64,000 nt of DNA, taken from assembly GCA_002347025.1 (NCBI GenBank), contig DEAE01000016.1:6877-70876 (forward strand), in the 5' to 3' direction. The stretch comes from Acidobacteria bacterium UBA2990. Lineage in GTDB: Bacteria; Acidobacteriota; Vicinamibacteria; Vicinamibacterales; UBA8438. Position numbers and translations under genes: made by a program. Every line of letters starts with the position of its first letter. The stretch's first letter is position 1. Shown piece after piece: positions 25,503 through 58,352 of the stretch. Below the pieces are notes generated by a model that did not search any database, was not told where the DNA came from, and saw only the letters and a list, made by a program, of their open reading frames with translations.

Positions 25503-26567
25503 CTAAGAAGTCGGTTCTTGACGTTCGAACGGCGCGAGTTCAAGCCAGATGAGCGCTCCCACAGAGCAGAACCCTACAGCTCCTACCACTAAGCCGCTAA
25601 CAGGAGGCCCGAACAAGACAAGCAACCAGGCTAGCAAGCCTCCCAATATCCCGCATATATAAAGCACACTAACCGCTTGGCGATGACTCAACCCAAGTGC
25701 TACGAGCCGATGCGCCGTGTGATCTTTTCCAGGGGAGGCGAATGGAACCAGCCCACGCCGAAGCCGGGACACCGTTACTAAAGTCGTGTCAAATATTGGC
25801 ACGAGTAGCACCAAAATCGGCACCATCCAACTCACAGAAGGTGCAGTGTCTGGAAAACGAAGCTTGATGCTAAGGGTGGCCGCGATGAGCCCTAACAACA
25901 TGGCACCACCGTCGCCCAAGAATATACGGGCCGGTGCAGCATTCCACCAAAGAAAGCCGAGCGACGCTCCTAAAGTCGCTGCAGCCATCGTGCCGACCAA
26001 CACTTGTCCAGCTGCGGCGGCAAAAGAGAAAGAAAACGCTGCCACGATAGCCGCGATCCCAGCACACAGGCCATCCATATGGTCGAGAATGCTAAAAGCA
26101 GCGATGATCCCAACAAACCAGACAAAAGAAACAGCAAAGTCGAGCCAAGCCCCAGGCCAACCCAACACCGGCAGCACTGTTACAGGATGAAAAATTTCAC
26201 TGTGCATGTCGGTAGCAATCAAAATGACTGCGGCAAATGGCATCGCCAGCATTAGCTTAACCTGGTGGTGCAACATGCCTCGGTCGTCCAGCATACCGAC
26301 CACCAGAGCGAGGGTTGATGCTACAAAGATTCCCAACATCTGCGACCACTCGTCATCAGTCACAAAAACGCTAATCGAAAACACCGCAGCCAGATATACG
26401 GCCAAACCACCAAGTACCGGCATCGGTGTTGCGTGCAATTTTCTCGGACCTGGCGTATCGACCAGTCCGAACCGGAAAGCAAGGTCTCGAGCAGCAGGCG
26501 TAAAGGTCGCCGCTGCAAGAAAGGCGGCGGTGCACGCCAATAGATCAGTCATCAAGATTTTGGTCAT
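25503..26567 (-). CDS. polyprenyl-phosphate N-acetylhexosamine-1-phosphate transferase (MraY/WecA family, GT4 of the PNPT superfamily)
   Basis: A polytopic membrane protein with LDD...L....KL, DHMDGL.AG and F.GD.GAM.LG motifs. Confidence 0.85.
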   Translation of the reverse strand: MTKILMTDLLACTAAFLAAATFTPAARDLAFRFGLVDTPGPRKLHATPMPVLGGLAVYLAAVFSISVFVTDDEWSQMLGIFVASTLALVVGMLDDRGMLHHQVKLMLAMPFAAVILIATDMHSEIFHPVTVLPVLGWPGAWLDFAVSFVWFVGIIAAFSILDHMDGLCAGIAAIVAAFSFSFAAAAGQVLVGTMAAATLGASLGFLWWNAAPARIFLGDGGAMLLGLIAATLSIKLRFPDTAPSVSWMVPILVLLVPIFDTTLVTVSRLRRGLVPFASPGKDHTAHRLVALGLSHRQAVSVLYICGILGGLLAWLLVLFGPPVSGLVVGAVGFCSVGALIWLELAPFERQEPTS

Positions 26568-27628
26568 GGACGGCTAGAAGCAACGTCGAGGTCAACGAGC
26601 GGTAACCGCTCCCTCTCAATCAAATCAAATAACGGTTGCGAATCACTCAATAATCTAGGGTGCAGGCTCGCCGTGGAGGACTCAGGTATATCAACTCCCA
26701 CGTCATTCCGCAGGAAATAGGCATTCGCACCACGAGGTTCAACAAGTACAAGGCGGTATCCCTTGTCGCGACCTAGTCGCGCCAACGCCGCCAGCGAGGC
26801 TCCATAGAAATGCATGGTCAGAGACTTATAGTGCGCTCGGTCAAACGCAGGATCATACTGCACTGTGACTACTCGCTCTGGTCCGAAGGCTGGATTGAAT
26901 TCGGCGATGATCATCCGAGGCGAACAGACCGTCAGCGCCTTCCACACCCAATAGTCTGTTCCGTCAAGATCAATACTGAGCAAATCGATCTCACCTGATA
27001 GACCCCCGTCTCGCACGAGAGCATTAACATTATCAGCAGTAATCCATCCTCCATGGACGGACACTCCAAAACGTCCAAAACGTCCGGACAACCTTTGAGC
27101 CCGCCTCCTGCTGCCATCCACCATTAGACCAGTCCAGCCACATGTCTCAACCAAGAATCCTGAATTGCCACCGTTGACACCAGCCCCTAATTCCACAAAT
27201 CTGCGATTAGTGTCACCAATGAGTTTGAATAGCGCTAACGTAATGCCATCTTCCTCGTTTTGCGACAATAAATGGAACCGCTGCGACAGAACATTATGCG
27301 GAAACTCCAACCTCCCTTGGTCGACATACTGGTGACGAATCAGCGCATGCAAGTTGCGTTCGATATGCCTTAATCGACCGTCGACACCGCGATGGCCCAA
27401 CTGAGCCTCGAGTCGATCCAGTTGTGTATATATCCGCTGCAATTGGCCGATTTCTTTTGCAAGGTGCTTTTGTTGACGCACCAAAACATTAAGTCGCTCC
27501 TGCATATCTATCTGCCCGGCCCGTGACGCCAAGCCTAGTGCTTCAAGAGCAACCCTTCGGAAACGTCGACACCACAACACCAGCGTATGCATCAGACGGT
27601 TGTCCACCCGCCTGCAAAACACGGCCAC
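26564..27628 (-). CDS. family C paralog 1: N-terminal coiled coil + FkbM-like SAM-methyltransferase-like domain
   Basis: The key sequence is SQNEEDGITLALF..IG.TNRRFVELGAGVNGGNSGFL....GWTGLMVDG ... IDLLSIDLDGTDYWVWKAL. It is paralogous to 46705..47655 and 55476..56441. The true start is uncertain (M1, M13 or M42). It overlaps the WecA-like gene by ATGA. Confidence 0.6.
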   Translation of the reverse strand: MAVFCRRVDNRLMHTLVLWCRRFRRVALEALGLASRAGQIDMQERLNVLVRQQKHLAKEIGQLQRIYTQLDRLEAQLGHRGVDGRLRHIERNLHALIRHQYVDQGRLEFPHNVLSQRFHLLSQNEEDGITLALFKLIGDTNRRFVELGAGVNGGNSGFLVETCGWTGLMVDGSRRRAQRLSGRFGRFGVSVHGGWITADNVNALVRDGGLSGEIDLLSIDLDGTDYWVWKALTVCSPRMIIAEFNPAFGPERVVTVQYDPAFDRAHYKSLTMHFYGASLAALARLGRDKGYRLVLVEPRGANAYFLRNDVGVDIPESSTASLHPRLLSDSQPLFDLIERERLPLVDLDVASSRP

Positions 27629-41777: not shown

Positions 41778-43997
41778 CTACGACAAGACACGCATGCGCG
41801 AGGCTAATGCAGGAGAGATAATCGGCTCCGCGATACCACTATCAGCCCCATCTAGTGTGTCACACAGCAACTCGACCATCGATAATTCCTTCACATCTAG
41901 AGTTACAAGGGAGGTGCCCAGATGCCTTGCCAAGCGTCGAGACACATCAAGATGAGTTGGCACCAGCTCGGCTTCATTCGAAAACAAACCGATAGTCGGC
42001 ACACCATAGAAGGGTCCAAGATAGGACAGCCCACCATATGTCCCAACAAATGCTCGAGACCGGGCAATAATCGAGCTTTGAACCTCAAGATTAGTCGTTG
42101 GCGTCATTAAGTGGTCGACCGTATGAATGCCCCTGCCGACTCCAGGATCGAAATCACGATGATCATCGACGCTCAAGCCAGTGTTCAGAAGTACCACGGG
42201 CATACGATTCGCTAGCCTCTTTATCATTCGAACAACTAGCCCGCGGTTTTCAGGCGTATCAGGAAATGATGGGCGAAAATAGAAACGGACCGCTATGAAT
42301 TTCTCTGGCAGGGTCTTGGCTAGAGCGTCGCCCCCAGTCGCAGGCATGGTCCGATAGACTGAATGCTTGTTTAATAAGCTAATCGCTCCTTTCTCATACC
42401 AGTAATAGCGGAGCAAACGATACATAATCGATGGATGTATAACGTTGACGTCGGTGAGACCGCGACGATTTTTTACAAGATTGACAATAAACTCATCGAA
42501 TGTTCCAGAAACCATCTGTTTTTGGTTGCCGCCGTCCCTCCATCTAGCATCATTGCGCTTACGGAACTGTTTCAGCGACATCATGCCGAAAATATCTTCG
42601 TGGTGCTCGGCAAAGTCTCGATACCAAGCGTGTGCGCCACCACGAGATACGACAATCAGCCGATCGCGGTCGATCTCGAATTCCTTGGTAGCCCACACCA
42701 GAAACGGAATCCAGTAAAGCACCTCAAAGCCAACCTCAGACAGCCATGGTCCGACAATGATCGGCCCTTGACCGCTCGAGGCAACTTTCAAAGCCTTTCG
42801 CATCGAGAAGACTTCAGGCCCGGATGGAACTTGATGAATTTCTTCGCGAGCCAACCAGGGAATCACCCAACCACGCATCAGTGGCAATGAAACCAAAATC
42901 CTGAGCAGAACACGACCTAGTGGAAAAGTTGCTGAACGAACCAAATCGCCCAACCTCACTCTCATGTCGCGCACGAACTTACGTCTCCCTTCATCCGTAG
43001 TAGCAACCTGCCGGCATTGTCTTTCAAGTTTTCCACAGAAGCGCATCGACCTTCTGAAAACACCTCGGCACTTTACATAAATCGGCTTCAAGAATGTTGC
43101 ATGCTCAAAGAGATCGACACGCAATTGCTTAAGTTGCTGCCTGGCATGCAGCAGACCAGCCAGCCATAGGTATCTAACACCAAACCTGAATCCAACAACA
43201 CGACCGATACGTGGGCAACATTGCCCGAGAACACCGAGGTTCCAACTCAGCACCGCAGCGTGGCCAATCCACCAAGGTAAGAATGCATACAAAGGCCGTC
43301 CATCGGGAAAGAACGCACGGCGTTGTCGTCCTAGACTAAAGATAGGACCATACCATCGCCTAAACCAAAGCACTTCTGGAACCTGCTGAAATTGTCCCTC
43401 AAGGGCAAGCTCCATCAGCAATAAGCGGTCCGGCACCAGCACCCGGCGAAAAACGCCGGCTCGTTTGATGGCGTCGGCTCTCCCTAGACCATAAATCATA
43501 TTGCCAGCGGACATATGCCTCATCGTCAACCGAAAACGGGTCCGGATATCATTAAGACCTACCGTCTCGAACATCCAAGGCTTCTTCTCGGTTAAACCAT
43601 CTGGTCCAATCCGATGGTTCTGGGGATATGCCAAAACCACGCCGGGTGATTGATCGAGAGCCCTAACAAGAACCTGTAACCAACGAGGATGCCAGATGTC
43701 GTGATCACTAGCCCAGGCAAAGTATTCCGCCGCAGGCACCTGCTCCATCGCCAAGCAGAACACTCGACGCCAATTGCCGATCATGCCCAAGCGCCTAGGG
43801 TTGCGGGAATACGTGATCCGTGAATCGTGTTTAGCGTATTCCTGAACGATATTTCCAGTCCCATCGGTCGACTGGTCGTCGACACACACAAGCCGGAAGT
43901 CCAGGAATGACTGGATCAGCAGTGATTCCAACGCTTCTGGCAGATCTTCAGCATGATTGTAAAGTGGTAGCCCAATGACGACTCGGGTCACACTCAT
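41778..43997 (-). CDS. fusion: GT2 (GT-A) glycosyltransferase + hydrophobic/basic linker + family-B GT9-like domain (B1, approx 41781..42770)
   Basis: The N-terminus (VVIGLPLYNHAEDLPEALESLL.QSF.DF.LVCVDD.STDGT, then ASDHD) is GT2-like. From about residue 405, GPIIVGPWLSEVGFEVLYWIPFL ... FIAVRFY ... FVGTYGGLSYLGPFYGVPTIGLFS matches the C-terminal domains of 47652..50348 and 50345..52219. Confidence 0.7.
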   Translation of the reverse strand: MSVTRVVIGLPLYNHAEDLPEALESLLIQSFLDFRLVCVDDQSTDGTGNIVQEYAKHDSRITYSRNPRRLGMIGNWRRVFCLAMEQVPAAEYFAWASDHDIWHPRWLQVLVRALDQSPGVVLAYPQNHRIGPDGLTEKKPWMFETVGLNDIRTRFRLTMRHMSAGNMIYGLGRADAIKRAGVFRRVLVPDRLLLMELALEGQFQQVPEVLWFRRWYGPIFSLGRQRRAFFPDGRPLYAFLPWWIGHAAVLSWNLGVLGQCCPRIGRVVGFRFGVRYLWLAGLLHARQQLKQLRVDLFEHATFLKPIYVKCRGVFRRSMRFCGKLERQCRQVATTDEGRRKFVRDMRVRLGDLVRSATFPLGRVLLRILVSLPLMRGWVIPWLAREEIHQVPSGPEVFSMRKALKVASSGQGPIIVGPWLSEVGFEVLYWIPFLVWATKEFEIDRDRLIVVSRGGAHAWYRDFAEHHEDIFGMMSLKQFRKRNDARWRDGGNQKQMVSGTFDEFIVNLVKNRRGLTDVNVIHPSIMYRLLRYYWYEKGAISLLNKHSVYRTMPATGGDALAKTLPEKFIAVRFYFRPSFPDTPENRGLVVRMIKRLANRMPVVLLNTGLSVDDHRDFDPGVGRGIHTVDHLMTPTTNLEVQSSIIARSRAFVGTYGGLSYLGPFYGVPTIGLFSNEAELVPTHLDVSRRLARHLGTSLVTLDVKELSMVELLCDTLDGADSGIAEPIISPALASRMRVLS

Positions 43998-45079: not shown

Positions 45080-46708
45080 TCACCGAGGGTTCTGGCTCTG
45101 CTCTGATTGGGTCTTAGGCACATCACCGGATGCACTTACCGCATCTAACGCCGCCTTCGTCAATTGGGGTCGCTCTATCGTCCGAGACAAGCGGGGCAAG
45201 CGCCACTCCTGCTTAAGGCGTCCCCACCTGTTAATCATGAAACGAATCAACCGTTTCTTAAGCCTCTTGCGACTAGCTGCAAGCCCAATAGCCCACAAAA
45301 ACGCCTTAAGGGGGACGAGAAGCCCTGACACAGCGTCTGGCGGAATCGGCGCTACATGGTCTAGTCCCTCCAGCGCAGTTACGAACCGTGGTGTAGCGGG
45401 TACGTCAAATCCATGAGGCCTCACAAAGGCTTCAATGAATCGCCGACTTGAATGCGATCCACCAGTATCAATTATCGACACAAGCTGAGAGACGTGCTCA
45501 TCGAGGCTCGTCGCTCGTTGTAGATGTCCGCCATTCTCAGGCAGTAGATACTGGAAATGAAGAGTGCCAGTCTGTGTTCGGTCGAAAGAAGAGTCTATGA
45601 TTGTGAATACGGGTCGGTCTTGTATGCCGGCCTCAATCATTGCCGAGGTATTGATACCCACCACGGCCATACTGTGATGGAGGGTGTCGTAGTAATCGGC
45701 CCTGTCATCATCATCAACTGGGTTGGCACCTTGGTTCGGAAATACCACAACACTTCTATAACCTGTCAAATCAACATTCTGCCAATGGTTTGAATTATAG
45801 GGATGTGGCCTAATAAGGATCCCCAGTGTGCTCAGCGTTCCCGGTCCAAGACGGATCGCTTCAATCCACCGTTTCACGAACCGAACCTCAGTATCAGGGG
45901 CGGAAATCGAGGCCGTGGACCCAACAAAAACGATAAATGCTTCATCTACCGGAAGACCAACACGGCGGCAAAATCTTTCGCGAGACAGACGAGGCTTCCG
46001 ATCAAACCAACGATCAAAACACTGTGCGCCAGTAATAGCGATCCTGTCACCAGAAGCAGCATGAAACTCAATGGCCTCTCTCCGCTGATGGTGGTTCCAC
46101 AAAGTAACCAAATCCGGTTGAATACGCATGAGCCCCTTGGTCGTTAGGTGATCCCAAGAAGCGACGCCCAAGACGCTCGGTATCCCAACCCTCCTAGCCG
46201 ATTTAATCATATCGACCTGTGGACATTGATCGGTGACAAGAGGTGAGACAATAAGCACATCTGGGCTCACCTGTTGAAGAAACGAATCGAGATTCTTGTT
46301 ACTTGGAATCGCACGTTCACAAGCATCAAGCAAGGCAAGCAAGCGGCGAGTCTTACCTTCGGTGCTCATCTGCCACCGACCCAAGAATCGTGTCAAAGGA
46401 GGCAACACCTTACGCATTCGATTCCGCAGGTAGGGTGAGTCCGCAAAGCGAGGATGCAGATAGCGGATGTAATCCACTGTCCCACGTACACCACGAGCCA
46501 CTGGCTCCCAAACATCAGCTCGAACTGGAGTCCTACCCAGCACCTCGACCGCCCGGCCTGAGGCCTTAAATGCTGCAAGTCCTTCAGCCTGCTTGTGAGG
46601 TTGATCGAAGGCAACGGACACCTGGTGGCCGCGGGTCAATAGAGCCTCGACAACCGAATCAAAATAGCGCAGATAGCCTGGATACTGGAGGACAAACAAG
46701 AACTTCAT
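45080..46708 (-). CDS. family A paralog 1: uncharacterised GT-B-like transferase (542 aa) with basic C-terminal tail
   Basis: It starts MKFLFVLQYPGYLRYF.....L..RGHQV. Other motifs are GIPSVLGVASWDHLTTKG, FIVFVGSTAS, ILIRPHPYN, VVGINTSAMIEAGIQDRPVFTI and GTLHFQYLL. It is collinear with the N-terminal half of 47652..50348, and more distantly with 53069..54586. Confidence 0.6.
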   Translation of the reverse strand: MKFLFVLQYPGYLRYFDSVVEALLTRGHQVSVAFDQPHKQAEGLAAFKASGRAVEVLGRTPVRADVWEPVARGVRGTVDYIRYLHPRFADSPYLRNRMRKVLPPLTRFLGRWQMSTEGKTRRLLALLDACERAIPSNKNLDSFLQQVSPDVLIVSPLVTDQCPQVDMIKSARRVGIPSVLGVASWDHLTTKGLMRIQPDLVTLWNHHQRREAIEFHAASGDRIAITGAQCFDRWFDRKPRLSRERFCRRVGLPVDEAFIVFVGSTASISAPDTEVRFVKRWIEAIRLGPGTLSTLGILIRPHPYNSNHWQNVDLTGYRSVVVFPNQGANPVDDDDRADYYDTLHHSMAVVGINTSAMIEAGIQDRPVFTIIDSSFDRTQTGTLHFQYLLPENGGHLQRATSLDEHVSQLVSIIDTGGSHSSRRFIEAFVRPHGFDVPATPRFVTALEGLDHVAPIPPDAVSGLLVPLKAFLWAIGLAASRKRLKKRLIRFMINRWGRLKQEWRLPRLSRTIERPQLTKAALDAVSASGDVPKTQSEQSQNPR

Positions 46709-47655
46709 CTCACCGCCTCTGCCGGCACCGCACTACCCGGTTGGCCCTGCTCATCAACAGGCACCAGCATAAGGTCGAAACGAGTGAACTTACCGAACAC
46801 ATTCTTAATACGGTTCCCAGGCGCCTGATACGCCAGAGCTGAAGTCAGGGTCGGAAAATTCGAAGCTACGTCCTCGCGGAGAAACACCGCATTAACCCGT
46901 TCACTCGTAACTAACCGGTAGCCTTTCCGACGTCCCAAGCGGACCATCGCCTCAAGTGAGGCACCACGATAAGCTCGAGTTGGAGCAGTCTTGATAAAGA
47001 AATTTGGATCATAGGGAATCGTTGCCGAGACAGTAGGACCTAATAAATAGTTGTATTCAATGATAACCACCCTTGGTCGGCAGATAGTGAGGGCATCCCA
47101 AAGCCAAAAATCATTACCGTCAACATCTAGACTCAGGAGATCAATCTCACCTCGGAAACCAGCCTCCGCCAACACAGTATTGATATTCTCTCGAGACATC
47201 CGATGGGATTCCGTCAGAACATCCTCACTGGCGAAACGAACAGCCACCTTTTCAACTGCGGCTGGCTGTGCATCGATCATTAAACCGCTCCAACCGCACT
47301 CCTGAGCAAGAAACCCGGAGTTTCCTCCGTTGACTCCACAACCAATCTCAACGAACCGGCTATTCGTGATACCCACCTGCTTGAAAAGTTCGACCAACAA
47401 CCCGTCTTCCTCATTCTGGGACGTAACACCAAATCGACGAGAGCGAAGAAGTTTTCTTGGTGGCAAGTCAACATCTTCGAGAAACATCCTGCGAGCGACC
47501 GCACTCACAGTTCGATGCGTCTTCTGGAGTTCAACCATCGAACGTTCGAGACGTTCGAGACGTTCGAGTACCTTGTCCAGGCGGTCAGCAAGATCCGCAC
47601 CAGTCGACCTGCCAAGAATTCGCTCCCAAAGCTTTGTCAAATTCATCAGTCTCAC
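46705..47655 (-). CDS. family C paralog 2: coiled coil + FkbM-like methyltransferase-like domain
   Basis: It shows SQNEEDGLLVELF..VG.TNSRFVEIGCGVNGGNSGFL....GWSGLMIDA ... IDLLSLDVDGNDFWLWDAL. The N-terminus contains LERLERLER. It has 4-nt overlaps with both neighbours. Confidence 0.6.
   Translation of the reverse strand: MRLMNLTKLWERILGRSTGADLADRLDKVLERLERLERSMVELQKTHRTVSAVARRMFLEDVDLPPRKLLRSRRFGVTSQNEEDGLLVELFKQVGITNSRFVEIGCGVNGGNSGFLAQECGWSGLMIDAQPAAVEKVAVRFASEDVLTESHRMSRENINTVLAEAGFRGEIDLLSLDVDGNDFWLWDALTICRPRVVIIEYNYLLGPTVSATIPYDPNFFIKTAPTRAYRGASLEAMVRLGRRKGYRLVTSERVNAVFLREDVASNFPTLTSALAYQAPGNRIKNVFGKFTRFDLMLVPVDEQGQPGSAVPAEAVR
47542..47568. repeat. perfect 3 x 9-bp tandem repeat (acgttcgag) inside family C paralog 2
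   Basis: 47542..47550, 47551..47559 and 47560..47568 are identical. On the minus strand the unit reads CTCGAACGT and encodes LER-LER-LER in the coiled-coil segment. Confidence 0.95.
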
Positions 47656-50348
47656 AAACGATCTTGGGTAACCGTTGCCAACCCATGGTCAACGGCCGAC
47701 CGAGCACCGTTAGGCATTGAGGCCACGTCGCCTCCATCAGGCTGCATCAGGACATGGCTCAGCAAATCGAGCCCTTCTACATCAAGGGCTACATAGGATC
47801 CACGTTTTAACTTCGCTGCAACTCTGTACATTAAGTCCAAGTGGTGGGGTGCAACATGAGCCGGGCTGGAATAGAACGCCAACGACCTTACCCCATAGAA
47901 CGGAGCGAGGTAAGACAGTCCTCCATAGTTGCCTATGAAGGCCTGAGCTCCACAGATTACCTTGGTCTGGACGTCGAGGTTATTACTAGGCTCAAGAAGG
48001 TGATCAATTGGGTGCACCTTTCTTGTAACGTCCGGCTTTAGATCCCAATGATCATCAAGATCATAACCAGGGTTTAACAGCACGACATCCGTAGTCTCCG
48101 TTATCCGCGTGAGCAACTTTCGAACGAAGATGACATTGGCTTCGGTCTCTGGGAACGCCGTATTGTGATAGAACCGAACCGCAATATACCTGTCAGGCAA
48201 TTTAGCCGAGATATCTGATATATCGAGGCTCGGCAGGCGCTTAAAAGATGCGAAATTCTCGATAAGATTGATTGATGTACGGCTCTTCCAATAGGGATAA
48301 AAAAGTCTATACATATACATTGGGTGAAACATCTGCACGTCTCTACGCTGAATGGACACCTTTACAAGTTTGACAACCTCTCGCTCAAAATCCGTGAAAG
48401 CTCTCTGCTTCATCTGTCCAGACGCGATCTGCTCTTCATTTCTCTTTTTCAACTGCTCAGGTGTGAAAAAATCAAACACATCGACGTAGTGATTACCTAT
48501 GTTCCTGTACCAGGAAGCTACTCCGCCACGAGATACGATAATCATGCGTTCTTGATCAAATTCTCGATAAGTCTTCACCCAATTCAAGAACGGCAACCAA
48601 TAAAGCAGTTCGAACCCAACCTCGCTCAGCCACGGCCCCACAATCAGCGGGCGGTCAATCTTGTGCATCTTGTCAATGACGCGGGGAATGGCCACCATCT
48701 CTTCTGTTGGCTCATCAGGATTCATTCGCGACATAACTCGCGGAACCATATATTTCTTAACGAACCCTTTTGCCGGACGCCAACGCAACACAAGATCAAG
48801 AAGATCGAACAATGGTTTAAGTAGAAACCCGCTAACAGTCAGTGGCCTTAGCTTGCGCTGCCGTTTCACCCGCACCCGTGCAAAGTGGCGTACCACCTTC
48901 AGCCCGAGAGCCGCCGGCCACAAAACACACCTAAACAGATATAGGGGCAGTCCAAGGCGCTCAGGCGAACCAGGAGAAAGCCGTCCTAGAGCTTCAATCC
49001 CGTCGGCTATGAGCGGCGTTGCTGGTACAGCTAAGCCTTCTGGGCGAACGAACCCCTCCAGAAAGCCTTTTCGCCTCGCGTCCTCCTTGAGTCCTTCAGT
49101 GAAAGCATGACTCAGTTGTTCGACATGGCGATCAAATCCTCTGGCGTTCTGAGCCAGGCCACCACCAACTTCAAGCAAATAGTGAAAATGCAGGGTACCC
49201 TCTTGAGTTCCAGCGTGTTCCTCACTTTGAATGGTGAAGACCGGTCGACCCACAACTCCGGCTTCAATTTGAGCACTCGTGTTTACGCCGACCACCATTG
49301 CACTATGAAAGAGGGAATCAAAAAAATCGTTCTTCGAGACCTCGTCTACTGGATTGGCACCACCCAATGGCCACACTACAACATCGTTAAACTCAGCTAG
49401 ATCATACTTTTGCCATGGTTGCACATTCTGGGGATGGGGCCGAACTAGCACAGCCGCTTCGCGCACCCTGACGTCGGTCGACGTTCGCAAAGCTCGGACC
49501 CAGCGATCGACGAACGCCGCTTCATTCGGAGCGATAAACCCAGAGGAACAAACATACAGAATGAAAGGCTGGTCAACTGGTAATCTGACCTTGCTACAGA
49601 ACTCCTCTCTCGTGGTGCTCGGCTTTCGATTGAACCACTGGTCGTAGACAGGAGCCCCAGTCACCAGGACATCAGCAGCATCTACACCATGCATCTCAAC
49701 TGCCTCGTGTTTCTGGAACTCGTTCCAGACATACACGCGGTCCGGTAAGAGCCGTATCAGGCCCTTGTTTGTCAGGTTGTCCCAACTGTGAACGCACAAG
49801 CCAGTCCGGATGCCACGTGCTTGAGCACTCTTGATGTAGTCAACCTGATCTGAGCCCAGATCAACCAGTGGAGTCACCAACACAACATCTGGCTCTTGTG
49901 CAGCGATGAGCCCATCAACCCAAGAATCGGTAGGAATCGCCTGCTCAATCCACAACAGCAACTTCCAAAGCAAACGCCGGCCAGTCGCGGAGTCCACTAG
50001 GGGCAACCCGCTGAACCAAGCGATTGTTCCGGGAAGCCGTGTCTCGGCTCGTTCCCTAAGCTTTTCAGCGATCTGATACTCAGGCGCACGATAGCGCAGA
50101 TAGTCAGCCCACAGCCTTACGCCGCGAGCAAGCCCCAACCAATAGCGATACGGGGTCTTCTTTGTCAGCTCAGAATAGGTAACGCTTGGGCAATCGTCGG
50201 TCAGCTCCCAAAGCAAGCGGCCGTCACCCAGGCGGTCTTGCATCACGAACGACAAATGTATGTCGTGCCCCCGAGAAGCTAACTCACGCACGGTGGAGCC
50301 AAAATTTCGGAGTGTTCCTGGATGACGCATCGAAAAGAAGATCTTCAT
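47652..50348 (-). CDS. fusion: family A domain (A2, approx 48930..50348) + family B GT9-like domain (B2, approx 47655..48653), 898 aa
   Basis: The start is reset to the ATG at 50348 (MKIFFSMRHPG, matching MKFLFVLQYPG of A1), which forms an ATGA with the stop of the Wzt-like gene. The A motifs are GIRTGLCVHSWDNLTNKG, LVRPHPQN, VVGVNTSAQIEAGVVGRPVFTI and GTLHFHYLL. The B motifs are RPLIVGPWLSEVGFELLYWLPFL, YIAVRFY and FIGNYGGLSYLAPFYGVRSLAFYS. Confidence 0.7.
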   Translation of the reverse strand: MKIFFSMRHPGTLRNFGSTVRELASRGHDIHLSFVMQDRLGDGRLLWELTDDCPSVTYSELTKKTPYRYWLGLARGVRLWADYLRYRAPEYQIAEKLRERAETRLPGTIAWFSGLPLVDSATGRRLLWKLLLWIEQAIPTDSWVDGLIAAQEPDVVLVTPLVDLGSDQVDYIKSAQARGIRTGLCVHSWDNLTNKGLIRLLPDRVYVWNEFQKHEAVEMHGVDAADVLVTGAPVYDQWFNRKPSTTREEFCSKVRLPVDQPFILYVCSSGFIAPNEAAFVDRWVRALRTSTDVRVREAAVLVRPHPQNVQPWQKYDLAEFNDVVVWPLGGANPVDEVSKNDFFDSLFHSAMVVGVNTSAQIEAGVVGRPVFTIQSEEHAGTQEGTLHFHYLLEVGGGLAQNARGFDRHVEQLSHAFTEGLKEDARRKGFLEGFVRPEGLAVPATPLIADGIEALGRLSPGSPERLGLPLYLFRCVLWPAALGLKVVRHFARVRVKRQRKLRPLTVSGFLLKPLFDLLDLVLRWRPAKGFVKKYMVPRVMSRMNPDEPTEEMVAIPRVIDKMHKIDRPLIVGPWLSEVGFELLYWLPFLNWVKTYREFDQERMIIVSRGGVASWYRNIGNHYVDVFDFFTPEQLKKRNEEQIASGQMKQRAFTDFEREVVKLVKVSIQRRDVQMFHPMYMYRLFYPYWKSRTSINLIENFASFKRLPSLDISDISAKLPDRYIAVRFYHNTAFPETEANVIFVRKLLTRITETTDVVLLNPGYDLDDHWDLKPDVTRKVHPIDHLLEPSNNLDVQTKVICGAQAFIGNYGGLSYLAPFYGVRSLAFYSSPAHVAPHHLDLMYRVAAKLKRGSYVALDVEGLDLLSHVLMQPDGGDVASMPNGARSAVDHGLATVTQDRL

Positions 50349-52219
50349 GACAAGACCTGATCTAACCAAGCACTGAGTCGCGTCGCGGTAAGTTCACTAG
50401 CTTTCTCAAGATCGACGCACTCATCCGTAACTGTCTTCACCATGGAGCGCAAGACCCGAACATGATGCGAAAAAAGTCTGCCTTCCTTTTCAAAAATCAT
50501 CAAAGTCGGCACCCGGTAGAAAGGAGGCAATAAGGAGATGCTACCGAATGTCCCAATGTAGGCACGGGCCCCGGCTATAACCTTAGCTTGCTCCCTCAAC
50601 TGGCTCTCAGATCGGCCTGGCGCTGGCACGACCTGAACATTGTTCGAATCAGAGTTCCCCTGTAGCCGAGGAACAAAACCATCAGAATCGACCAACCTAA
50701 CCGGTAGACGTTTGGCTAGATCGAGCGATATCCAATTCATTAAATCGCGGTGCGGCTTAGTATCCTCAAAAGAAGAGCTAAACCGGAAACCTAACACCGC
50801 GTAAGGCTGAGCTTCCTTTTGGATTGACTCGGTCGTAGCTACCGGCGGAGTCAACGGCTCATAACGCGAATGCTCATCCAACCACGAATCTGGCAATGAT
50901 CCATCCCAAACCCTCGAGCATGCATTGAAGAGAAGAGAGGGATGGACTACGGCATAGTCCTTCGTATCAATCCGCTGTGCGACACATTCAAGCAGCTCGG
51001 TATCAAAATTCGATATCTGCTTCTGTTTCCAGGACCCAGTCTCTTTGATTCGGTCTCGATTTCGATGCTCAAACACATCAAATGAAACTAGGTCGCACAC
51101 ATCGATATAAGATCCCACAAGGCTGCCATACCACTCATCAACCCGTCCGCGCGACACCGCAACAACAGGCCCAGGCGGCCTACCGAATTGACTAAACATC
51201 CAGGCAACAAACGGTCGCCAATAAAGCAATTCCAGTCCCACATCAGAAAGGCACGGACCAATAATGATTGGCCTGTGTCCGTCCCAAGCCTGAGTCACAT
51301 GATGGGACACATCAGGAGCAACACCTGTTCTTTCAAGACTGCGCACAGCCCGGCGAACGATTTCGCCAGGTTCTAAGCGAACAGGGGCATCAGGTGACCG
51401 GCTACCATCCTCGACAAGCCGAGATTGCACTTGGTCTAGGCGATTGAGCCGATAAACAAACTTGTCATAAACCGGTAGGACCATCTGAGGACTACCCTCA
51501 TAAACAACATCGCCTTCATGCAAGATCATCGCGCGTGAGAAGTTCGCTTGCTCTGGAAGACCTGCCGCTACTGACGATAGAATGAGATTCGCGCCCTGCT
51601 CTAGGACCAGCCCTACACGATCCGCCACCCGTCTCGACACCGGATCGTCACCGGCCCTCGGAAAACCGTCAAAGATACGAATGTCCTTCGGAACAACTAG
51701 AGCTGACACCAACCCCAATTGACCTCCACGCTCCTTCGGCAGGTCGATGAGCTTAGTGTCCCTCTCATCTGACAACCCTGTAATATCAAGCACCTCTTCA
51801 CAGCACTTACCGGAAAGTTCGGGCTCGACGCCATGAATGGCGGTAGCAAGCTGCACACACTCCCAAACCGTCAAAAAAGCAACCATTCCCACAGGTCTGG
51901 CACCCACCAGACCCACGCGGCCACCAGCATGGACATGCCCCGCATCGGCACGCAACATCCCCGTCAACAGCTTTGCGATAGTCGTCTTGCCAGAACCTGC
52001 CGCTCCGAGAACAAGGACGTTCTCACCTTCTCGCATCGTGACGGAAAATCCTCGGATCGCCACCCACTCATCAGGTCGGAGACGATTCAGCGACCGCTTA
52101 CCAAAACGAAAAATATCTGCGAACACATGTCGACGTCCCAGCTCAAAATCAGAGGTAAATACCTTGGCAAGAGCTTTACATTCAAGCAACGTCCTGGGCC
52201 TAGCCGTGCTCATCATCAC
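50345..52219 (-). CDS. fusion: Wzt/TagH-type ABC nucleotide-binding domain with degenerate catalytic motifs (approx 51425..52219) + family B GT9-like domain (B3, approx 50348..51274)
   Basis: The Walker A motif LGAAGSGKTT is intact. The Walker B region reads IRIFDGFPRAGD, against the subfamily pattern hhhhDE.L.VGD, so Gly185 replaces the catalytic Glu. The H-loop reads LILSSV, against VSH. The signature region reads KERGGQ. The C-terminal part (RPIIIGPCLSDVGLELLYWRPF ... YIGTFGSISLLPPFYRVPTLMIFE) is homologous to B1 and B2. Confidence 0.7.
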   Translation of the reverse strand: MMMSTARPRTLLECKALAKVFTSDFELGRRHVFADIFRFGKRSLNRLRPDEWVAIRGFSVTMREGENVLVLGAAGSGKTTIAKLLTGMLRADAGHVHAGGRVGLVGARPVGMVAFLTVWECVQLATAIHGVEPELSGKCCEEVLDITGLSDERDTKLIDLPKERGGQLGLVSALVVPKDIRIFDGFPRAGDDPVSRRVADRVGLVLEQGANLILSSVAAGLPEQANFSRAMILHEGDVVYEGSPQMVLPVYDKFVYRLNRLDQVQSRLVEDGSRSPDAPVRLEPGEIVRRAVRSLERTGVAPDVSHHVTQAWDGHRPIIIGPCLSDVGLELLYWRPFVAWMFSQFGRPPGPVVAVSRGRVDEWYGSLVGSYIDVCDLVSFDVFEHRNRDRIKETGSWKQKQISNFDTELLECVAQRIDTKDYAVVHPSLLFNACSRVWDGSLPDSWLDEHSRYEPLTPPVATTESIQKEAQPYAVLGFRFSSSFEDTKPHRDLMNWISLDLAKRLPVRLVDSDGFVPRLQGNSDSNNVQVVPAPGRSESQLREQAKVIAGARAYIGTFGSISLLPPFYRVPTLMIFEKEGRLFSHHVRVLRSMVKTVTDECVDLEKASELTATRLSAWLDQVLS

Positions 52220-52253
52220 CTAACCAGTAGCATCAACAAACGGTCACCCATCC

Positions 52254-53072
52254 TCAACGCCTTGCCTGAGGCAGGCTCTGCACTGCCAGGGGCATAGCTC
52301 GTTGAAAAAACAAGTAGATGCCCCCAGCCAGCACAGCGAGAAGGGCAACACACATGAGGAAAAGCAAATCATTATCCGTGGCCCCACTAACAAGCCACCG
52401 CCGAGGAATGTTAATTAGATAAGTCAGTGGATTCCAACGGTTAACCACAGCCAGTAACCCCGTTTCTGGTTCCGCGTACAAAATAGGGGCCGTCCACAAC
52501 AGGACCGGAGCAAGCATTGGCAAACCGAAGCGAAAATCAAGGTAAACGAAGGTCAAGGGAACAAAACAAGCACCCACAATTAACCCACCCAAGACGATCA
52601 CGGGCAAGGCAAACACCCCCAGAGGTAGCGTCAAGGGTGGCGAAGCACTCGTCAGTAGGTAGGCAGATAAGAATAGCGCCCCATAAAACATCGAGTTAAA
52701 CAACACAAGTCCAGCACCGGCCGTCAGCACTGCCTCAGGACGCAATGGACCATCAACGAATGTCCGGCGCAGTCGTCTGCCGAGCCACTGCGGAGCGATG
52801 ACGGCGTCCCAGAACATCTGCCACAGTAAGAATCCGCTCAAAGCGTAAAGCACATACTCACCTGCACTCATATCACCACCGAAACCAAAGGCATTGCCTA
52901 CTAGAATCAACGGTAATACCGCCATCAAAGGACGAGCAATAGCCCATACGTATTTCAGAAAAGCCTGCCGATAGCGCGCGCGAAAATCCCTCAGGAAAAG
53001 CAGTCGTCCGACGAAAACTAATTGCCTCACACTCGATTGCTGGGTCGACTGACATCTCCAATGCTTATTCAT
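52254..53072 (-). CDS. ABC-2-type polysaccharide exporter permease (Wzm/TagG/KpsM-like)
   Basis: F.RDFRARYRQ.FL...WA...PL, followed by 6 hydrophobic segments, is typical of ABC-2 permeases. The start is reset to the ATG at 53072 (MNKHW..), which forms an ATGA with the stop of 53069..54586. The track start at 53120 would overlap by 52 nt. Confidence 0.75.
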   Translation of the reverse strand: MNKHWRCQSTQQSSVRQLVFVGRLLFLRDFRARYRQAFLKYVWAIARPLMAVLPLILVGNAFGFGGDMSAGEYVLYALSGFLLWQMFWDAVIAPQWLGRRLRRTFVDGPLRPEAVLTAGAGLVLFNSMFYGALFLSAYLLTSASPPLTLPLGVFALPVIVLGGLIVGACFVPLTFVYLDFRFGLPMLAPVLLWTAPILYAEPETGLLAVVNRWNPLTYLINIPRRWLVSGATDNDLLFLMCVALLAVLAGGIYLFFQRAMPLAVQSLPQARR

Positions 53073-54586
53073 GATTCGTTGCCCCACGCTGTTGTCTGTC
53101 GCAACGTACGGAGGACCCACCCAGCCAGACGTTCACTCGCACCACCAGCAGGAACTCCACAACAACGATGGACCAATTCACATCTCGCTTCCTCATCCTT
53201 ACTTGGGTCCACCAGATAGGAACGTACTAACTCGATTAGATCGCCTGGGCTTGTTGCAATACGAGCCGCTTGAGTCTCAACTACCGCCTGGTAGTGCTCG
53301 TACTGATAATACCGACTAATTGACAATGGTAAATCCAAGTTCGGCACCTCATCGTAGCCAACATTGACCACGGGAGTATCGAACAGGGCTGCTTCTATTG
53401 TCGTAGTCGATGCGAAATTCACGATGACGTCACTGTGCGCTAAAGTGCCAGCCAGACGACGACGGTCGCCGATGTCCGGCGTGAAAGCATCAAAGTAATG
53501 TACGCCAGGCCCACACTGAAGCCGGTGGAACGGCTTTTCCACAAACACCCGGTGCCCATCATGAAGACCTTGATACGACTCAGTGGCATCCCTGGGGTGG
53601 ACTCGCACAAGCAGCTGGACATCAGTCCCCAACTTGCTGTCTCTTGCCGCTGCAACCAAGGTTTCCACGACTTTCTCTGTGGTTGGGTACACCGGGGCAG
53701 GGGCGCTTGCTAAAGTCACTAATGGCCTTGCCGGGTCAGCCCCAAAAGCTCTAAAAAACTCCTGCCTCGTCGGAATGGTGTCACCCTGGCTATACACATC
53801 AAACGACACTGGTCCTGTGACCGCCACGCGATCGGGATGAAACCCGTGATAACGAACCGCCTCGGTCCGCATGGTCTCATTCCATACAGCCAAATGGTCA
53901 ACAGGGAGAACGGTGTGGTATTTGGATGAGAGATTGTCCCACCCAAGATCGACTCCCATTTGGGGCACACCAAAGGCCTTGGCTGCATAAATAAGCGGTA
54001 CCTCCAGGGGAAGGAATCCTGCAGTGGAAGTCACCAACATTACCGGCCGATAGGTTTCGAATAGACTTCGGTAACCTTCTAGATTAGTTATAGCCTGCGC
54101 TAGACGAAACCACCTACTCCGCGATAGCGGTAGGCGGCAAACGACTGCCTTGATCGCACTTAACAATTTCCGTCCACGCCACCCATCGAGCAATCTGGCC
54201 CGATCACGCTGAAGGCGAACCGCACGCAGCTTAGACTCCAGAAGAAATTTCTCGCTCAGGATAGAATCGACCACCCGCTCGAGGATTCCTGGTCTGAACT
54301 CAGGTAACGGCAGACAAATCACACCGGCACATTTGAGTTCGTTGGCCAGCCGGTCGTCTGAAGCGAACGGCGACAAGACTGCAATTCTTAGACTCGGCCG
54401 CGCATCAAGCAGGAAACGGAGAAACGACCCGCGAGCTAGGTCGGCCACATGGTGACCAGCCGGCACTGACAAAAAGATCGTCGACTGGCCGACTCGTGGA
54501 CCAGACAAAGAGTGATCTAATAGCCCTTCTATCGTCTCTTTCGTTGGTCCTATCGGCAAGCTCGAAGTGACCATCATAGGATGCAA
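53069..54586 (-). CDS. family A paralog 3 (divergent): uncharacterised GT-B-like transferase, 505 aa
   Basis: GVPQMGVDLGWDNLSSKY, AVWNE..R.EAV.YHGF..DRV.VTGPV.FD, LLVRVHPRD and VIVNFASTTTIEAALFDTPVVNV are collinear with the A1/A2 motifs. Confidence 0.55.
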   Translation of the reverse strand: MHPMMVTSSLPIGPTKETIEGLLDHSLSGPRVGQSTIFLSVPAGHHVADLARGSFLRFLLDARPSLRIAVLSPFASDDRLANELKCAGVICLPLPEFRPGILERVVDSILSEKFLLESKLRAVRLQRDRARLLDGWRGRKLLSAIKAVVCRLPLSRSRWFRLAQAITNLEGYRSLFETYRPVMLVTSTAGFLPLEVPLIYAAKAFGVPQMGVDLGWDNLSSKYHTVLPVDHLAVWNETMRTEAVRYHGFHPDRVAVTGPVSFDVYSQGDTIPTRQEFFRAFGADPARPLVTLASAPAPVYPTTEKVVETLVAAARDSKLGTDVQLLVRVHPRDATESYQGLHDGHRVFVEKPFHRLQCGPGVHYFDAFTPDIGDRRRLAGTLAHSDVIVNFASTTTIEAALFDTPVVNVGYDEVPNLDLPLSISRYYQYEHYQAVVETQAARIATSPGDLIELVRSYLVDPSKDEEARCELVHRCCGVPAGGASERLAGWVLRTLRQTTAWGNES

Positions 54587-54587
54587 G

Positions 54588-55088
54588 TTACGTCTTTGCT
54601 TGTGCGATCAAGTCGCAGACTTCACGCACAGCGCCGTAGCCCCCCATCCGCGAAGTAATGAATTGGGCAACGTCCTGTACTTCAGGATAAGCATCAGCTA
54701 CACAAATCGAAATGCCAACATTTCGCAGACAGTCCAGATCGTTGACATCGTTACCAACATAAGCCACGGCCCTCAGATCAAGCCCACGCTCTGTAATAAT
54801 TGTTCGAAGGGTCGCCCATTTGGTATCACCAAGGCCTTGTTTACACTCTAGTTGTAGCTTCGTAGCACGAGCCGATACAACAGGATTGGTCTCTGTTGAC
54901 AGAACCATACAATCGACGCCGACCCGACCTAACATCTGCACACCTAGCCCATCCGACCTGGAACAATAAACAGATTCCCGGCCATCTTCTCCGACTAAAA
55001 CTCGGTTGTCCGTGAACACCCCATCAAAGTCAAAAACAACGAAGGTAACCGCACTGAGGTGATCCTTTGTGATTGGTATAGCCATCAT
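54588..55088 (-). CDS. KdsC-family HAD phosphatase (ulosonate-phosphate phosphatase)
   Basis: It has VVFDFDGVFTDN (the DxD nucleophile motif), ....DG.G...L...G......ST......V..RA..L and YVGNDVND, typical of Kdo-8-P / Kdn-9-P phosphatases. Confidence 0.8.
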   Translation of the reverse strand: MMAIPITKDHLSAVTFVVFDFDGVFTDNRVLVGEDGRESVYCSRSDGLGVQMLGRVGVDCMVLSTETNPVVSARATKLQLECKQGLGDTKWATLRTIITERGLDLRAVAYVGNDVNDLDCLRNVGISICVADAYPEVQDVAQFITSRMGGYGAVREVCDLIAQAKT

Positions 55089-55475: not shown

Positions 55476-56441
55476 TCACACTTCGAACTCGACAAGCGGT
55501 AGGTTGGCGGCCGCCACATATTTGTAGATGTCCTCTTGTTTCCTACGCATCCAAACGTCGTAACGCTTTAGCAGTCTAAAAGCATCAGCTGGGCTACAAG
55601 CTGGAATCTCTGCACCGACATCATTACGGAGAAAATAAGCATTTACCCCGGTGGGCTCAGTTGCTACTAGTCGATACCCTTTAGCAGCACCGAGTTTAGC
55701 CAGAGCCGCTAGCGAAGCACCATAGTAAACAAATCGATGCTTATGCACGTCAAATTGTGGATCGTAGGGAATCGTAACGGCTCGGTCTGGTCCAAAAGCA
55801 GAATTGTATTCCACGACAACGACCCTCGGCGAACAAGCTGTTACAGCCTCCCAAACCCAATAATCATTCCCATCAAGATCGATACTCATAAAATCGATCT
55901 CGCCATCCAGTCCAGCATTGGCAATCAACTCGTTAATGTTTTCACGGGTAATCCAGGCACCTAACGCGACCACGCCAGGAAAACGCCGACCAACTTGCAC
56001 CATCCGCTCTTTATCACCATCAAGCATCAACCCTGTCCACCCCAACTCACTTGCGAGACAGGCTGAATTACCTCCACTCAGGCCAGACCCTACTTCCACG
56101 AACCGACGATTAGTTGAACCAATCTGTTCAAAGATCGCCAATGTGATGCCATCCTCTTCGTTTTGAGAGTTCAGACGATACCTACGAACCATTAAACGCT
56201 GAGGGTAGGGCAGGCTTTCTGAATCCAAGTGGTGCATACGAAGGACAGCCTGCACGTCCGGACCCAACCGCGAGACCCGTCGAGACACCTTCATCAAAAC
56301 CGTAGTCATTGCCTGCTGCTCAGTCTCGAGGGTTTCCAACCTCTTGTTGGCTGCGGTCAATTCCAAACGCAGGAGGCGAATCTCATCTAGCAACTCTTGA
56401 TAAGCACGGCCGGTCTCCACATCTTCATCCTCAATCATCAC
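55476..56441 (-). CDS. family C paralog 3: coiled coil + FkbM-like methyltransferase-like domain
   Basis: It shows SQNEEDGITLAIF..IG.TNRRFVEVGSGLSGGNSACL....GWTGLMLDG ... IDFMSIDLDGNDYWVWEAV. It is ATGA-coupled to the upstream 133-aa gene. Confidence 0.6.
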   Translation of the reverse strand: MMIEDEDVETGRAYQELLDEIRLLRLELTAANKRLETLETEQQAMTTVLMKVSRRVSRLGPDVQAVLRMHHLDSESLPYPQRLMVRRYRLNSQNEEDGITLAIFEQIGSTNRRFVEVGSGLSGGNSACLASELGWTGLMLDGDKERMVQVGRRFPGVVALGAWITRENINELIANAGLDGEIDFMSIDLDGNDYWVWEAVTACSPRVVVVEYNSAFGPDRAVTIPYDPQFDVHKHRFVYYGASLAALAKLGAAKGYRLVATEPTGVNAYFLRNDVGAEIPACSPADAFRLLKRYDVWMRRKQEDIYKYVAAANLPLVEFEV

Positions 56442-56950: not shown

Positions 56951-57397
56951 GTGCTGGCAGTTGCCCAACCCATAGCAATGATTTCAGACTTTCTGGCGCT
57001 CTTTGGGCTGACATCACTAAGGCAGCTACATGCTGCCACTGCTCGAGCAGACGAACTCAAGGCTCGCGCCACCGCCTTGCAGGAGCGGCTCGAAGCAACC
57101 AAGCAAGACTCCGAACGCTGGAAACGGAAGAGTCAGCAGACTGCCGCTCGACTAGATTCAGCGAACAAGGAAGCCGAACGGTGGAAACAAAAAGACGCCG
57201 GACACCTCACCGAACTTAGCCGACTCAGTCGCGCCGAGAAATTAACCAAGCTGGCTCGAGAGCACCTATTGCTAATGGAAACCAAGCTAGACGTCATGGA
57301 AGGAGCCATAACAGTGCTCGATCGGCGAACTCGAAGCCAAAAAGAGCCGAGCAAAGTAGCTATAACGGAACCACCAGCCAATACCCACCGTGACTGA
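56951..57397 (+). CDS. hypothetical coiled-coil protein (148 aa; start could be Met at 56978)
   Basis: It contains a long charged helix, ELKARATALQERLEATKQDSERWKRKSQQTAARLDSANKEAERWKQKDAG..., with an internal ERWK(R/Q)K repeat. It is divergent from the 133-aa gene and overlaps the next gene (GTGACTGA). Confidence 0.5.
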   Translation: MLAVAQPIAMISDFLALFGLTSLRQLHAATARADELKARATALQERLEATKQDSERWKRKSQQTAARLDSANKEAERWKQKDAGHLTELSRLSRAEKLTKLAREHLLLMETKLDVMEGAITVLDRRTRSQKEPSKVAITEPPANTHRD

Positions 57398-58352
57398 CAC
57401 ACCTTTTCTCAGCATCGTCGTCACTGGCCGAAACGACGACTACGGGGGGCAGTTCGCTAGGCGCTTCATTCGTGCCCTCACCTTCAACATCGAGCAACTT
57501 GCCAACCAGAATTTGTCTGCCGAAATCCTTCTTGTTGAATGGAGTCCGGTTCCAGGCCGGCGATTACTCGCGGAAGAGGTCTTAACTTTTTTGCCGCCAT
57601 GGTGCCACAAATGGTTCACTAGCTTCATAGTCGATAGCCGATATCAAGAGGCCCTTAGCCTCAATCCAAACCTGGGGTATCTCGAATACATTGCAAAGAA
57701 TGTCGGCATCCGACGAGCCAAAGGCCACCTGATCCTAGCCACCAATACTGACATTTTGTTCAGCTCAGCCCTCATCAGCAAGATGTCGGCAGGTCAATTA
57801 ATCGATGGTCGAGTCTATCGAGCTAACAGGATCGACCTCAAACTTGGCATCGATGAAAGCAGGCTCCATAACGATTTGCTCGACAATCCAAATAACCACG
57901 TTCCTCGCACACCGATCAAGCCACCGCTCTATGCAGGTGCTGCAGGTGACTTCATCCTCCTCGACCGAGAGACTTTGAAACGGCTACGTGGGTTTAACGA
58001 GGTTTATCGAATGGCCCGTTTCGGTGTGGACCACAACTTCCTTATAAAAGCACGCTCTTCTGGGATACCCATCGAAGACATTGAAGCCCCCGTCTACCAT
58101 ATTAGCCACACCACGAGTTTCCAAGTTGCGAAACATATCGCAACCCCTAAGCAAGCCGAGCGCCTCTGGGGCTCCAAGTGGCACAACCATAACGTTATCT
58201 ACGACAACCCGGAAGAATGGGGACTAGGCAACGCGCCTGTCACAAGGATCGGAGAACGAATCTGGCAGATAGATTTTGACTGGATATCGGTTGCTCCCTT
58301 AACGGACTTACGGCGCATCGTGCTAGCCGACGTCCCCGAATTAAATTGCTGA
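57390..58352 (+). CDS. GT-A-fold glycosyltransferase-like protein (GT2-like)
   Basis: FLSIVVTGRND.....F.RRF...L......Q........EILLVEW.P, then ATNTDILFS and GDFILLDRETLKRLRGFNE, resemble GT-A enzymes with a C-terminal galactosyltransferase-type segment. It has a GTG start. Confidence 0.5.
   Translation: MTDTPFLSIVVTGRNDDYGGQFARRFIRALTFNIEQLANQNLSAEILLVEWSPVPGRRLLAEEVLTFLPPWCHKWFTSFIVDSRYQEALSLNPNLGYLEYIAKNVGIRRAKGHLILATNTDILFSSALISKMSAGQLIDGRVYRANRIDLKLGIDESRLHNDLLDNPNNHVPRTPIKPPLYAGAAGDFILLDRETLKRLRGFNEVYRMARFGVDHNFLIKARSSGIPIEDIEAPVYHISHTTSFQVAKHIATPKQAERLWGSKWHNHNVIYDNPEEWGLGNAPVTRIGERIWQIDFDWISVAPLTDLRRIVLADVPELNC

Follow-up and report, generated by a model that had tools for sequence, protein, structure and literature searches.

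Three paralogous FkbM-related putative glycan methyltransferases with N-terminal coiled-coil arms in a surface-sugar locus of an uncultured marine acidobacterium

A 64,000-nucleotide stretch of contig DEAE01000016.1 from Acidobacteria bacterium UBA2990, an uncultured marine member of its phylum, contains a surface-sugar gene cluster (the whole stretch is called the window below) in which three genes, designated C1, C2 and C3, encode members of one protein family, family C. We show that the three proteins are paralogs with a common fold and common motifs, that their N-terminal arms carry heptads and differ in length, and that they belong to three orthogroups with conserved gene neighbourhoods. 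We propose, at a probability of about 0.6, that they are subfunctionalised glycan methyltransferases of an unnamed FkbM-related family which, mounted on coiled-coil arms, are tethered into the complex that assembles the glycan.

The three open reading frames were all found on the minus strand, with stop-free translations (aa, amino acids):

26564..27628 as listed, 26564..27592 from the ATG, minus strand: C1, family-C methyltransferase paralog, 354 aa as listed and likely 342 aa
46705..47655 as listed, 46705..47646 from the ATG, minus strand: C2, family-C methyltransferase paralog, 316 aa as listed and likely 313 aa
55476..56441 as listed, 55476..56438 from the ATG, minus strand: C3, family-C methyltransferase paralog, 321 aa as listed and likely 320 aa

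The genes probably begin a few codons downstream of the listed GTG, since database proteins of 98-100% identity begin at the in-frame ATG (P0393, 342 aa and 99% identical to C1; P0124, 313 aa and 98% to C2; P0004, 320 aa and 100% to C3). A preliminary description of the window, made from its sequence, had reported three paralogs that align from end to end, and this is confirmed: the MAFFT alignment spans the full proteins at 40-47% identity, and pairwise BLASTP gives 49% (E 2e-83), 41% (E 1e-68) and 46% (E 3e-64), far above chance. A search of the whole genome found exactly these three family-C copies. The motifs listed in that description are likewise all present, with SQNEEDG, FVExGxGxxGGNS, GW(T/S)GLMxD, GEIDxxSxDxDGxD(Y/F)WxW, GASL and KGYRLV invariant in C1-C3, and they are invariant or nearly so across 92 homologs.

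Structure prediction places these motifs in a methyltransferase. The AlphaFold model of C3, built with the 92-sequence alignment (pLDDT 93.7, pTM 0.86), has one helix, residues 4-71, and after it a methyltransferase domain of the Rossmann type, and the model of C1 (pLDDT 89.5) has helices at residues 2-18, 24-65 and 69-89 ahead of the same domain, which begins at S110. When the two models were compared with the Protein Data Bank (PDB) by Foldseek, 154 and 277 matches were obtained at E<=1e-3, and all of the matches listed are class I S-adenosylmethionine (SAM) methyltransferases. The top matches are the sugar C3-methyltransferases TcaB9 and KijD1 (Foldseek E 2e-5 and 4e-6, probability 1.0); cation-dependent O-methyltransferases also appear in the list, as does EvdMO1 with its sugar O-methyltransferase domain. 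Both models thus have the class I SAM-methyltransferase fold, the absence of which the preliminary description had named as fatal to its reading.

In C3 numbering, motif I corresponds to E116-x-G118-x-G120, after the strand formed by residues 113-117, and D141 ends strand 2 (136-141); both are invariant or nearly so in the 92 homologs. An acidic cluster, D188-x-D190-G-x-D193 after strand 4 together with E211 and N213 after strand 5, is invariant throughout. We infer from these positions that C1-C3 use SAM and transfer its methyl group: SAM would be bound by the GxGxG loop and the Asp ending strand 2, with the invariant SQNEEDG segment forming a cap ahead of strand 1, and the DxDGxD/ExN acidic cluster would form the active site. 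The cluster may bind a metal, as in catechol-type O-methyltransferases. None of the 34 residues that are invariant across the family is missing from C1, C2 or C3; the GxGxG loop, Asp141 and the DxDGxD cluster are among them. Such retention speaks for selection on catalysis and for activity in each of the three proteins. The same observation bears on the notion that at least one paralog is a pseudo-methyltransferase, a non-catalytic scaffold that arranges transferases through its coiled coil. Apparently degenerate domains do already exist in the locus, such as an ATPase that lacks both the Walker B Asp-Glu and a signature motif, and the family-C genes are tightly coupled to those of partner enzymes; with every invariant residue in place we judge pseudoenzymes unlikely, and the scaffold idea highly improbable.

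Family membership is less direct than fold. Against the Pfam model of FkbM-type methyltransferases (Methyltransf_21, PF05050, threshold 22.7 bits), C2 scores 23.7 bits over a partial alignment (model positions 85-152 of 173), so that the profile check suggested in the preliminary description gives a marginal match for C2 and nothing above threshold for C1 and C3. No relevant NCBIfam model matches any of the three. At E<=0.01, however, 36 of the 92 homologs match Methyltransf_21, and three metagenomic proteins of about 605-632 aa (P0273, P0291 and P0296) join an N-terminal family-C module to a C-terminal canonical FkbM domain (Methyltransf_21, E ~1e-22); to judge by their domains, these fusions look like double methyltransferases. 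Because of these matches and natural fusions we regard family C as a separate, unnamed, FkbM-related clade, and C1-C3 as probable relatives of the FkbM family (PF05050 / TIGR01444) that are not clear members of it. The preliminary description's term, FkbM-like methyltransferase, holds up on these grounds, as it does on the fold matches and on the invariant GxGxG loop and acidic residue. Like FkbM proteins, family C has the class I fold with a glycine-rich loop after strand 1 and is frequent in glycan loci, and it is through the strand-4 region that it aligns with the Pfam model; this region reads IDLLSxDxDGxD in family C and compares with a IDLLKIDVEGAE-type motif in FkbM. Features of its own are a helical arm at the N-terminus and the SQNEEDG cap, invariant in family C, and it occurs as a module distinct from the canonical domain to which it is fused.

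Ahead of the SQN motif there are 109 residues in C1, 75 in C2 and 90 in C3; the arm of C1 comprises residues 1-109, with the three helices of the model, that of C2 residues 1-75, and that of C3 the single long helix. In a test over 28 residues, with shuffled sequences for comparison, heptad periodicity is significant in C2 and C3 (p<=0.003), nearer the limit in C1 (p 0.047), and at p<=0.003 in most orthologs. Hydrophobicity averaged over orthologs has a sharp maximum at 3.5 residues per period, with power 79 against 36 at 3.6 for residues 4-60 of C3 (49 sequences) and 53.5 against 22 for residues 24-65 of C1 (62 sequences), which is characteristic of a coiled coil and not of a simple amphipathic helix. 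The clearly heptad part spans about 30-57 aa, so that the coiled-coil N-terminus of about 60-100 aa given in the preliminary description stands in kind, as a helical heptad-bearing arm, and is generous in length. A 68-residue helix measures about 10 nm, roughly twice the width of the domain, and much of the C3 helix must on this geometry project beyond the catalytic domain. The first helix of C1 is amphipathic and cationic (net charge +3 to +4) and the N-terminus of C3 is acidic (net charge -6); no hydrophobic transmembrane segment was found in any of the three.

Distant homologs from Nostoc, Nevskia, Moorena, Desulfotruncus and Methanoperedens are negative in the heptad test (p 0.18-1.0), and the coiled coil is on this evidence a trait of a clade that includes the Vicinamibacterales and not of the whole family. 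In these distant proteins an extension of about 60 aa is nonetheless present, and its beginning is basic and amphipathic. Within the coiled-coil clade the arm, measured from start codon to SQN among database homologs, has a length characteristic of each orthogroup (IQR, interquartile range):

C2 orthogroup: median 75 aa, IQR 73-77, n=81
C3 orthogroup: median 88 aa, IQR 81-91, n=99
C1 orthogroup: median 110 aa, IQR 106-122, n=75

In a maximum-likelihood tree the orthogroups track gene position, with support of 100/100 for C1, 99/99 for C2 and 100/99 for C3, and they nest in a clade of 22 sequences (100/100) that also contains sequences from Planctomycetota and Actinomycetota. A recent tandem duplication as the origin of C1-C3 is rejected, the tree showing three old orthogroups, each with its own conserved neighbourhood. 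Family C is present in 16 of the 61 relatives surveyed, at 1-5 copies each and mostly clustered. In a relative of another genus (G017) the whole locus is colinear, with C3, C2 and C1 at the same three places and an extra tandem C1-type copy. Two further relatives (G027 and G014) keep the order GT1-C1-WecA-flavoprotein, so that the C1-WecA adjacency is common to all three, while a fourth (G046) has C3-type and C2-type genes among genes of families A and B, the putative transferase families described below. The order C3-HAD-A3-Wzm is also conserved (loci L045, L047 and L058). Copy number varies locally: the extra copy at the C1 position in G017 (L033 2543-4896) falls outside the C1 clade in the tree, and another relative, G002, has three tandem C1-type copies (L039 12230-15542).

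All three genes lie in one long minus-strand stretch, at about 22.3-59.7 kb of the window, that constitutes the glycan locus. By rising coordinate, which is the reverse of transcription, its order is as follows (GT1 and GT2, glycosyltransferase families; ALDH and SDR, aldehyde and short-chain dehydrogenase types):

First part: a Wzy_C-like 687-aa protein, a flavoprotein, the WecA-like initiator, C1
After C1: GT1 transferases and an AsnB-type amidotransferase
Next: an acidic-sugar pathway of NeuB, CMP-transferase, transketolase, ALDH and SDR
Next: a cytidylyltransferase-methyltransferase fusion, a GT2 fused to a family-B domain, another methyltransferase
Next: A1, C2, A2-B, an ABC-type ATPase fused to a family-B domain
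End: a 288-aa multi-spanning protein, A3, a KdsC-type HAD phosphatase, C3, a 133-aa protein

The genes around the three paralogs are:

25503..26567, minus strand: WecA-like initiating transferase (Glycos_transf_4), whose ATG overlaps the C1 stop codon (ATGA)
45080..46708, minus strand: A1, a 542-aa family-A putative transferase, whose ATG overlaps the C2 stop codon (ATGA)
47652..50369, minus strand: A2-B, a 905-aa fusion of family-A and family-B domains, whose stop abuts or overlaps the C2 start
50345..53120, minus strand: exporter genes (624-aa ABC-type ATPase and 288-aa protein)
53069..55088, minus strand: A3 (505-aa family-A paralog) and KdsC-type HAD phosphatase, between the exporter genes and C3
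56438..56839, minus strand: helical protein of 133 aa; its stop codon overlaps the start of C3

Each paralog is accordingly coupled to a different partner, as had been claimed, although the junction of C3 with the 133-aa gene differs from the ATGA overlaps of C1 and C2 in being GTGA or, if the ATG is used, a one-nucleotide overlap.

The 133-aa helical protein matches no family in our searches, and yet a homologous gene overlaps and precedes the C3 ortholog in two other genera (G017, L031 14130-14546; G046, L035 16138-16542), with the common motif LxSDLxLVxAxFR. Since the overlapping pair recurs in this way, we treat the protein and C3 as a conserved module. Divergent from the pair is the gene of a charged coiled-coil protein of about 140-148 aa (56951-57397, plus strand; motif LDV(I/M)EGA..VLDRRTR), which overlaps that of a 320-aa protein with no family match (57390-58352, plus strand); these two genes are kept together in both of the other genera (L031 12648-14793; L035 19240-20002).

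Of the two exporter genes, that of the 624-aa ATPase lies at 50345-52219 (minus strand). The protein has a Walker A motif (GAAGSGKT), and a simple pattern scan of it found neither an LSGGQ-type signature nor an hhhhDE Walker B. The 288-aa protein, with at least five hydrophobic segments and no family match, is consistent with a Wzm-type permease. A family-B domain of about 300 aa is common to three proteins at 26-42% identity, namely the GT2 protein (residues 409-719; gene at 41778-43997, minus strand), the 905-aa protein (573-881) and the ATPase (314-615), and is glycosyltransferase-like in the last of these. It thus occupies the C-terminal 300 aa of the ATPase, the site at which Wzt proteins have a carbohydrate-binding module, and the family search gave no match to such a module in the ATPase.

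From this arrangement we propose that C1, C2 and C3 act in the cytoplasm on the undecaprenyl-linked glycan made by the locus, each methylating a different residue or position, with a sugar hydroxyl as the putative acceptor. The coiled-coil arm would homo-oligomerise the enzyme and dock its catalytic domain to the membrane-associated assembly machinery. For all three, the docking site would be either the membrane, on its cytoplasmic side, or the partner enzymes. C1 and C2 may dock by means of their first helix, cationic and amphipathic, and C3, with its acidic N-terminus, by means of the co-translated 133-aa helical partner. Methylation of the primer or adaptor would fall to C1, alongside the WecA-like initiator and the GT1 block. 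The repeat polymer would be the target of C2, in company with the polymerising enzymes of families A and B, and C3 would take the terminal or export-proximal part, together with the A3/HAD/exporter block.

Several points weigh against this proposal. The score of C3 against the Pfam FkbM model is 12.7 bits (E 0.14), below threshold, and C1 does not match it at all. Profiles built from 3 and from 92 sequences and compared with all PDB chains found no solved protein related by sequence, the arm being matched only by sub-threshold coiled-coil noise. The AlphaFold models are monomers and cannot reveal oligomerisation, and the paralogs are assigned to stages by their gene order. Finally, the best fold matches act on nucleotide-sugars, so that a precursor might serve as substrate in place of the polymer.

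This last point can be developed into an alternative in which C1-C3 methylate soluble precursors, either nucleotide-sugars or the CMP-ulosonic acid of the neighbouring pathway, before transfer, and the arms simply dimerise or trimerise the enzymes. TcaB9 and KijD1, the best fold matches, are nucleotide-sugar C3-methyltransferases, and the locus encodes a NeuB/CMP-transferase ulosonic-acid pathway together with a cytidylyltransferase-methyltransferase fusion. Both of these enzymes use dTDP-sugars as substrates and contain a zinc-binding domain at the N-terminus. They share the core methyltransferase fold with family C, but at 15-18% identity and TM-scores of only about 0.3-0.4, with no coiled-coil arm and no SQNEEDG motif, and equally good matches use many other substrates. 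Moreover, the coupling of C1-C3 is to transferases and not to precursor genes, the cationic, amphipathic helix with which C1 begins points to a place near the membrane, and three paralogs at three transferase blocks suit a polymer better than a single precursor. We regard action on precursors as quite unlikely.

A different reading was put forward in the preliminary description, which likened the paralogs to the coiled-coil terminators WbdD and WbbB of ABC-dependent O-antigen systems. In characterised systems of this kind a single terminator carries a coiled-coil ruler, and a carbohydrate-binding module of the exporter ATPase reads the cap that it adds (PMC11231755). The version best suited to the present locus is that one paralog, most likely C3 with its 133-aa partner, is a WbdD-like terminator that adds a methyl cap and uses its arm as a ruler; by extension, the other paralogs could do likewise on different glycan domains. 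The ABC-dependent context is borne out in part, in that the locus holds ABC-exporter-type genes. C3 lies near these genes in an order (C3-HAD-A3-Wzm-ATPase) that is conserved, it has an adaptor protein, its heptads are conserved and its arm length is specific to its orthogroup, and a coiled coil is present in every characterised terminator (PMC11231755). Terminator function itself is nevertheless not demonstrated, and much speaks against it: there are three old, position-specific orthogroups where one terminator would be expected; the heptad stretches are only about 30-57 aa; the ATPase carries a family-B domain in place of a cap-reading carbohydrate-binding module; and the paralogs lack a kinase domain and are unrelated to WbdD in sequence. 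None of the known terminators (the WbdD kinase/methyltransferase, GT99 and GT137) appeared in the profile searches of the whole PDB or among the top 50 fold matches. In addition, distant members of family C in Nostoc linckia and Nevskia soli lie within Wzy/Wzc-type loci, where polymerisation is periplasmic; since such loci need no cytoplasmic terminator, the basic job of the family would be glycan modification. Taken together, we consider the terminator reading unlikely, with C3 a minority candidate for capping.

Comparison with individual terminators leads to a similar picture. WbdD of Escherichia coli O8/O9a and Klebsiella pneumoniae O5/O3, which terminates chains as a methyltransferase or a kinase-methyltransferase, resembles family C in combining a SAM methyltransferase domain with a coiled coil in an ABC-exporter-type locus, and C1 also resembles it in having an amphipathic helix at the far end of the coiled coil. 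The WbdD coiled coil is well over 100 residues long. The arms of family C are several-fold shorter, and the systems differ further in that family C has no kinase domain and no detectable sequence similarity to WbdD, in the presence of three paralogs instead of one, and in the ATPase, which here lacks the carbohydrate-binding module. The arm is N-terminal in family C but C-terminal in WbdD, whose coiled coil has been described as 'extended' (PMC11231755). In ORF6 of K. pneumoniae O7 and WbbB of O12, terminator modules are joined to glycosyltransferases through a coiled coil (PMC11231755). Here too a modifying enzyme with a coiled coil is linked to polymerising transferases, the link being translational coupling to family-A/B genes; ORF6 and WbbB, however, are single multidomain polypeptides, whereas the proteins of this locus are separate, and a terminating role for family C is hypothetical.

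The distinct arm lengths allow one further speculation, that the paralogs form a graded set of rulers in which stalks of about 75, 88 and 110 residues each set the distance of an enzyme from the membrane-bound assembly complex, with a dedicated methylating enzyme for each of the initiation, elongation and termination of one glycan. The WbdD principle would here be varied by the use of several rulers. C3 and its 133-aa adaptor would then place the terminating mark, for an exporter that has no cap-reading module and whose ATPase lacks catalytic residues. We think such a set decidedly improbable. A kindred idea is that a heteromeric coiled coil unites the paralogs as one multi-headed enzyme.

Beyond this locus, the tethered-methyltransferase proposal concerns a large and unnamed family. 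When 1.84 billion representative proteins were searched with a profile, 9,563 clusters (50% identity) matched at E<=1e-3 and 1,960 at E<=1e-30, and every name on the matches listed, including those on RefSeq plasmids and in a phage collection, is 'hypothetical protein'. Among species-representative genomes the closest relatives come from metagenome-assembled genomes (MAGs) of Vicinamibacterales and other Acidobacteriota, and more distant ones from Actinomycetota, Planctomycetota, Bacteroidota, Cyanobacteriota, Gemmatimonadota, Pseudomonadota, Bacillota and a Methanoperedens archaeon. The family is found in at least 10 bacterial phyla, one archaeon and one cyanophage, and glycan genes were adjacent in all loci examined. 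The phage is the T4-like Synechococcus phage S-SM2 (GU071095.1 / NC_015279.1), which encodes a homolog of the catalytic domain (152229-152768; 31% identity, E 2e-14). A full-text literature search found no paper with an SQNGED/SQNEEDG-type motif, and no study of family C was found in the literature on FkbM proteins and O-antigen chain length or on Vicinamibacter polysaccharides and methyltransferases.

Across 80 species-representative loci, members of the coiled-coil clade are regularly flanked by homologs of family A, the family A-B fusion, the GT2-B fusion, the cytidylyltransferase-methyltransferase and NeuB, and distant members of family C are not, which shows that the A, B and C modules travel together. 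The coiled-coil clade also occurs outside Acidobacteriota, in MAGs of an Actinomycetes member (L064), a member of the Euzebyales (L071) and a planctomycete (L073), where family C stands beside homologs of family A/B, the cytidylyltransferase-methyltransferase and a 315-aa protein of unknown function. This suggests that the module set crosses phyla as a unit.

FkbM-related glycan methyltransferases are already known, and the finding of more of them is not surprising in principle. What is new is a group of putative enzymes of this type that bear coiled-coil arms at the N-terminus and comprise three paralogs, each specific to its position, with arms in three classes of fixed length. If family C were named as a family of glycan methyltransferases, thousands of polysaccharide loci could be annotated better. 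In the Vicinamibacterales, family C belongs with families A and B to a transferable, uncharacterised module set responsible for an acidic-sugar polymer. More generally, the conserved arm lengths of the orthogroups open to experiment the question of how ABC-type glycan assembly places its modifying enzymes, and they make it possible to ask whether the coiled-coil ruler principle reaches beyond terminators to modifying enzymes.

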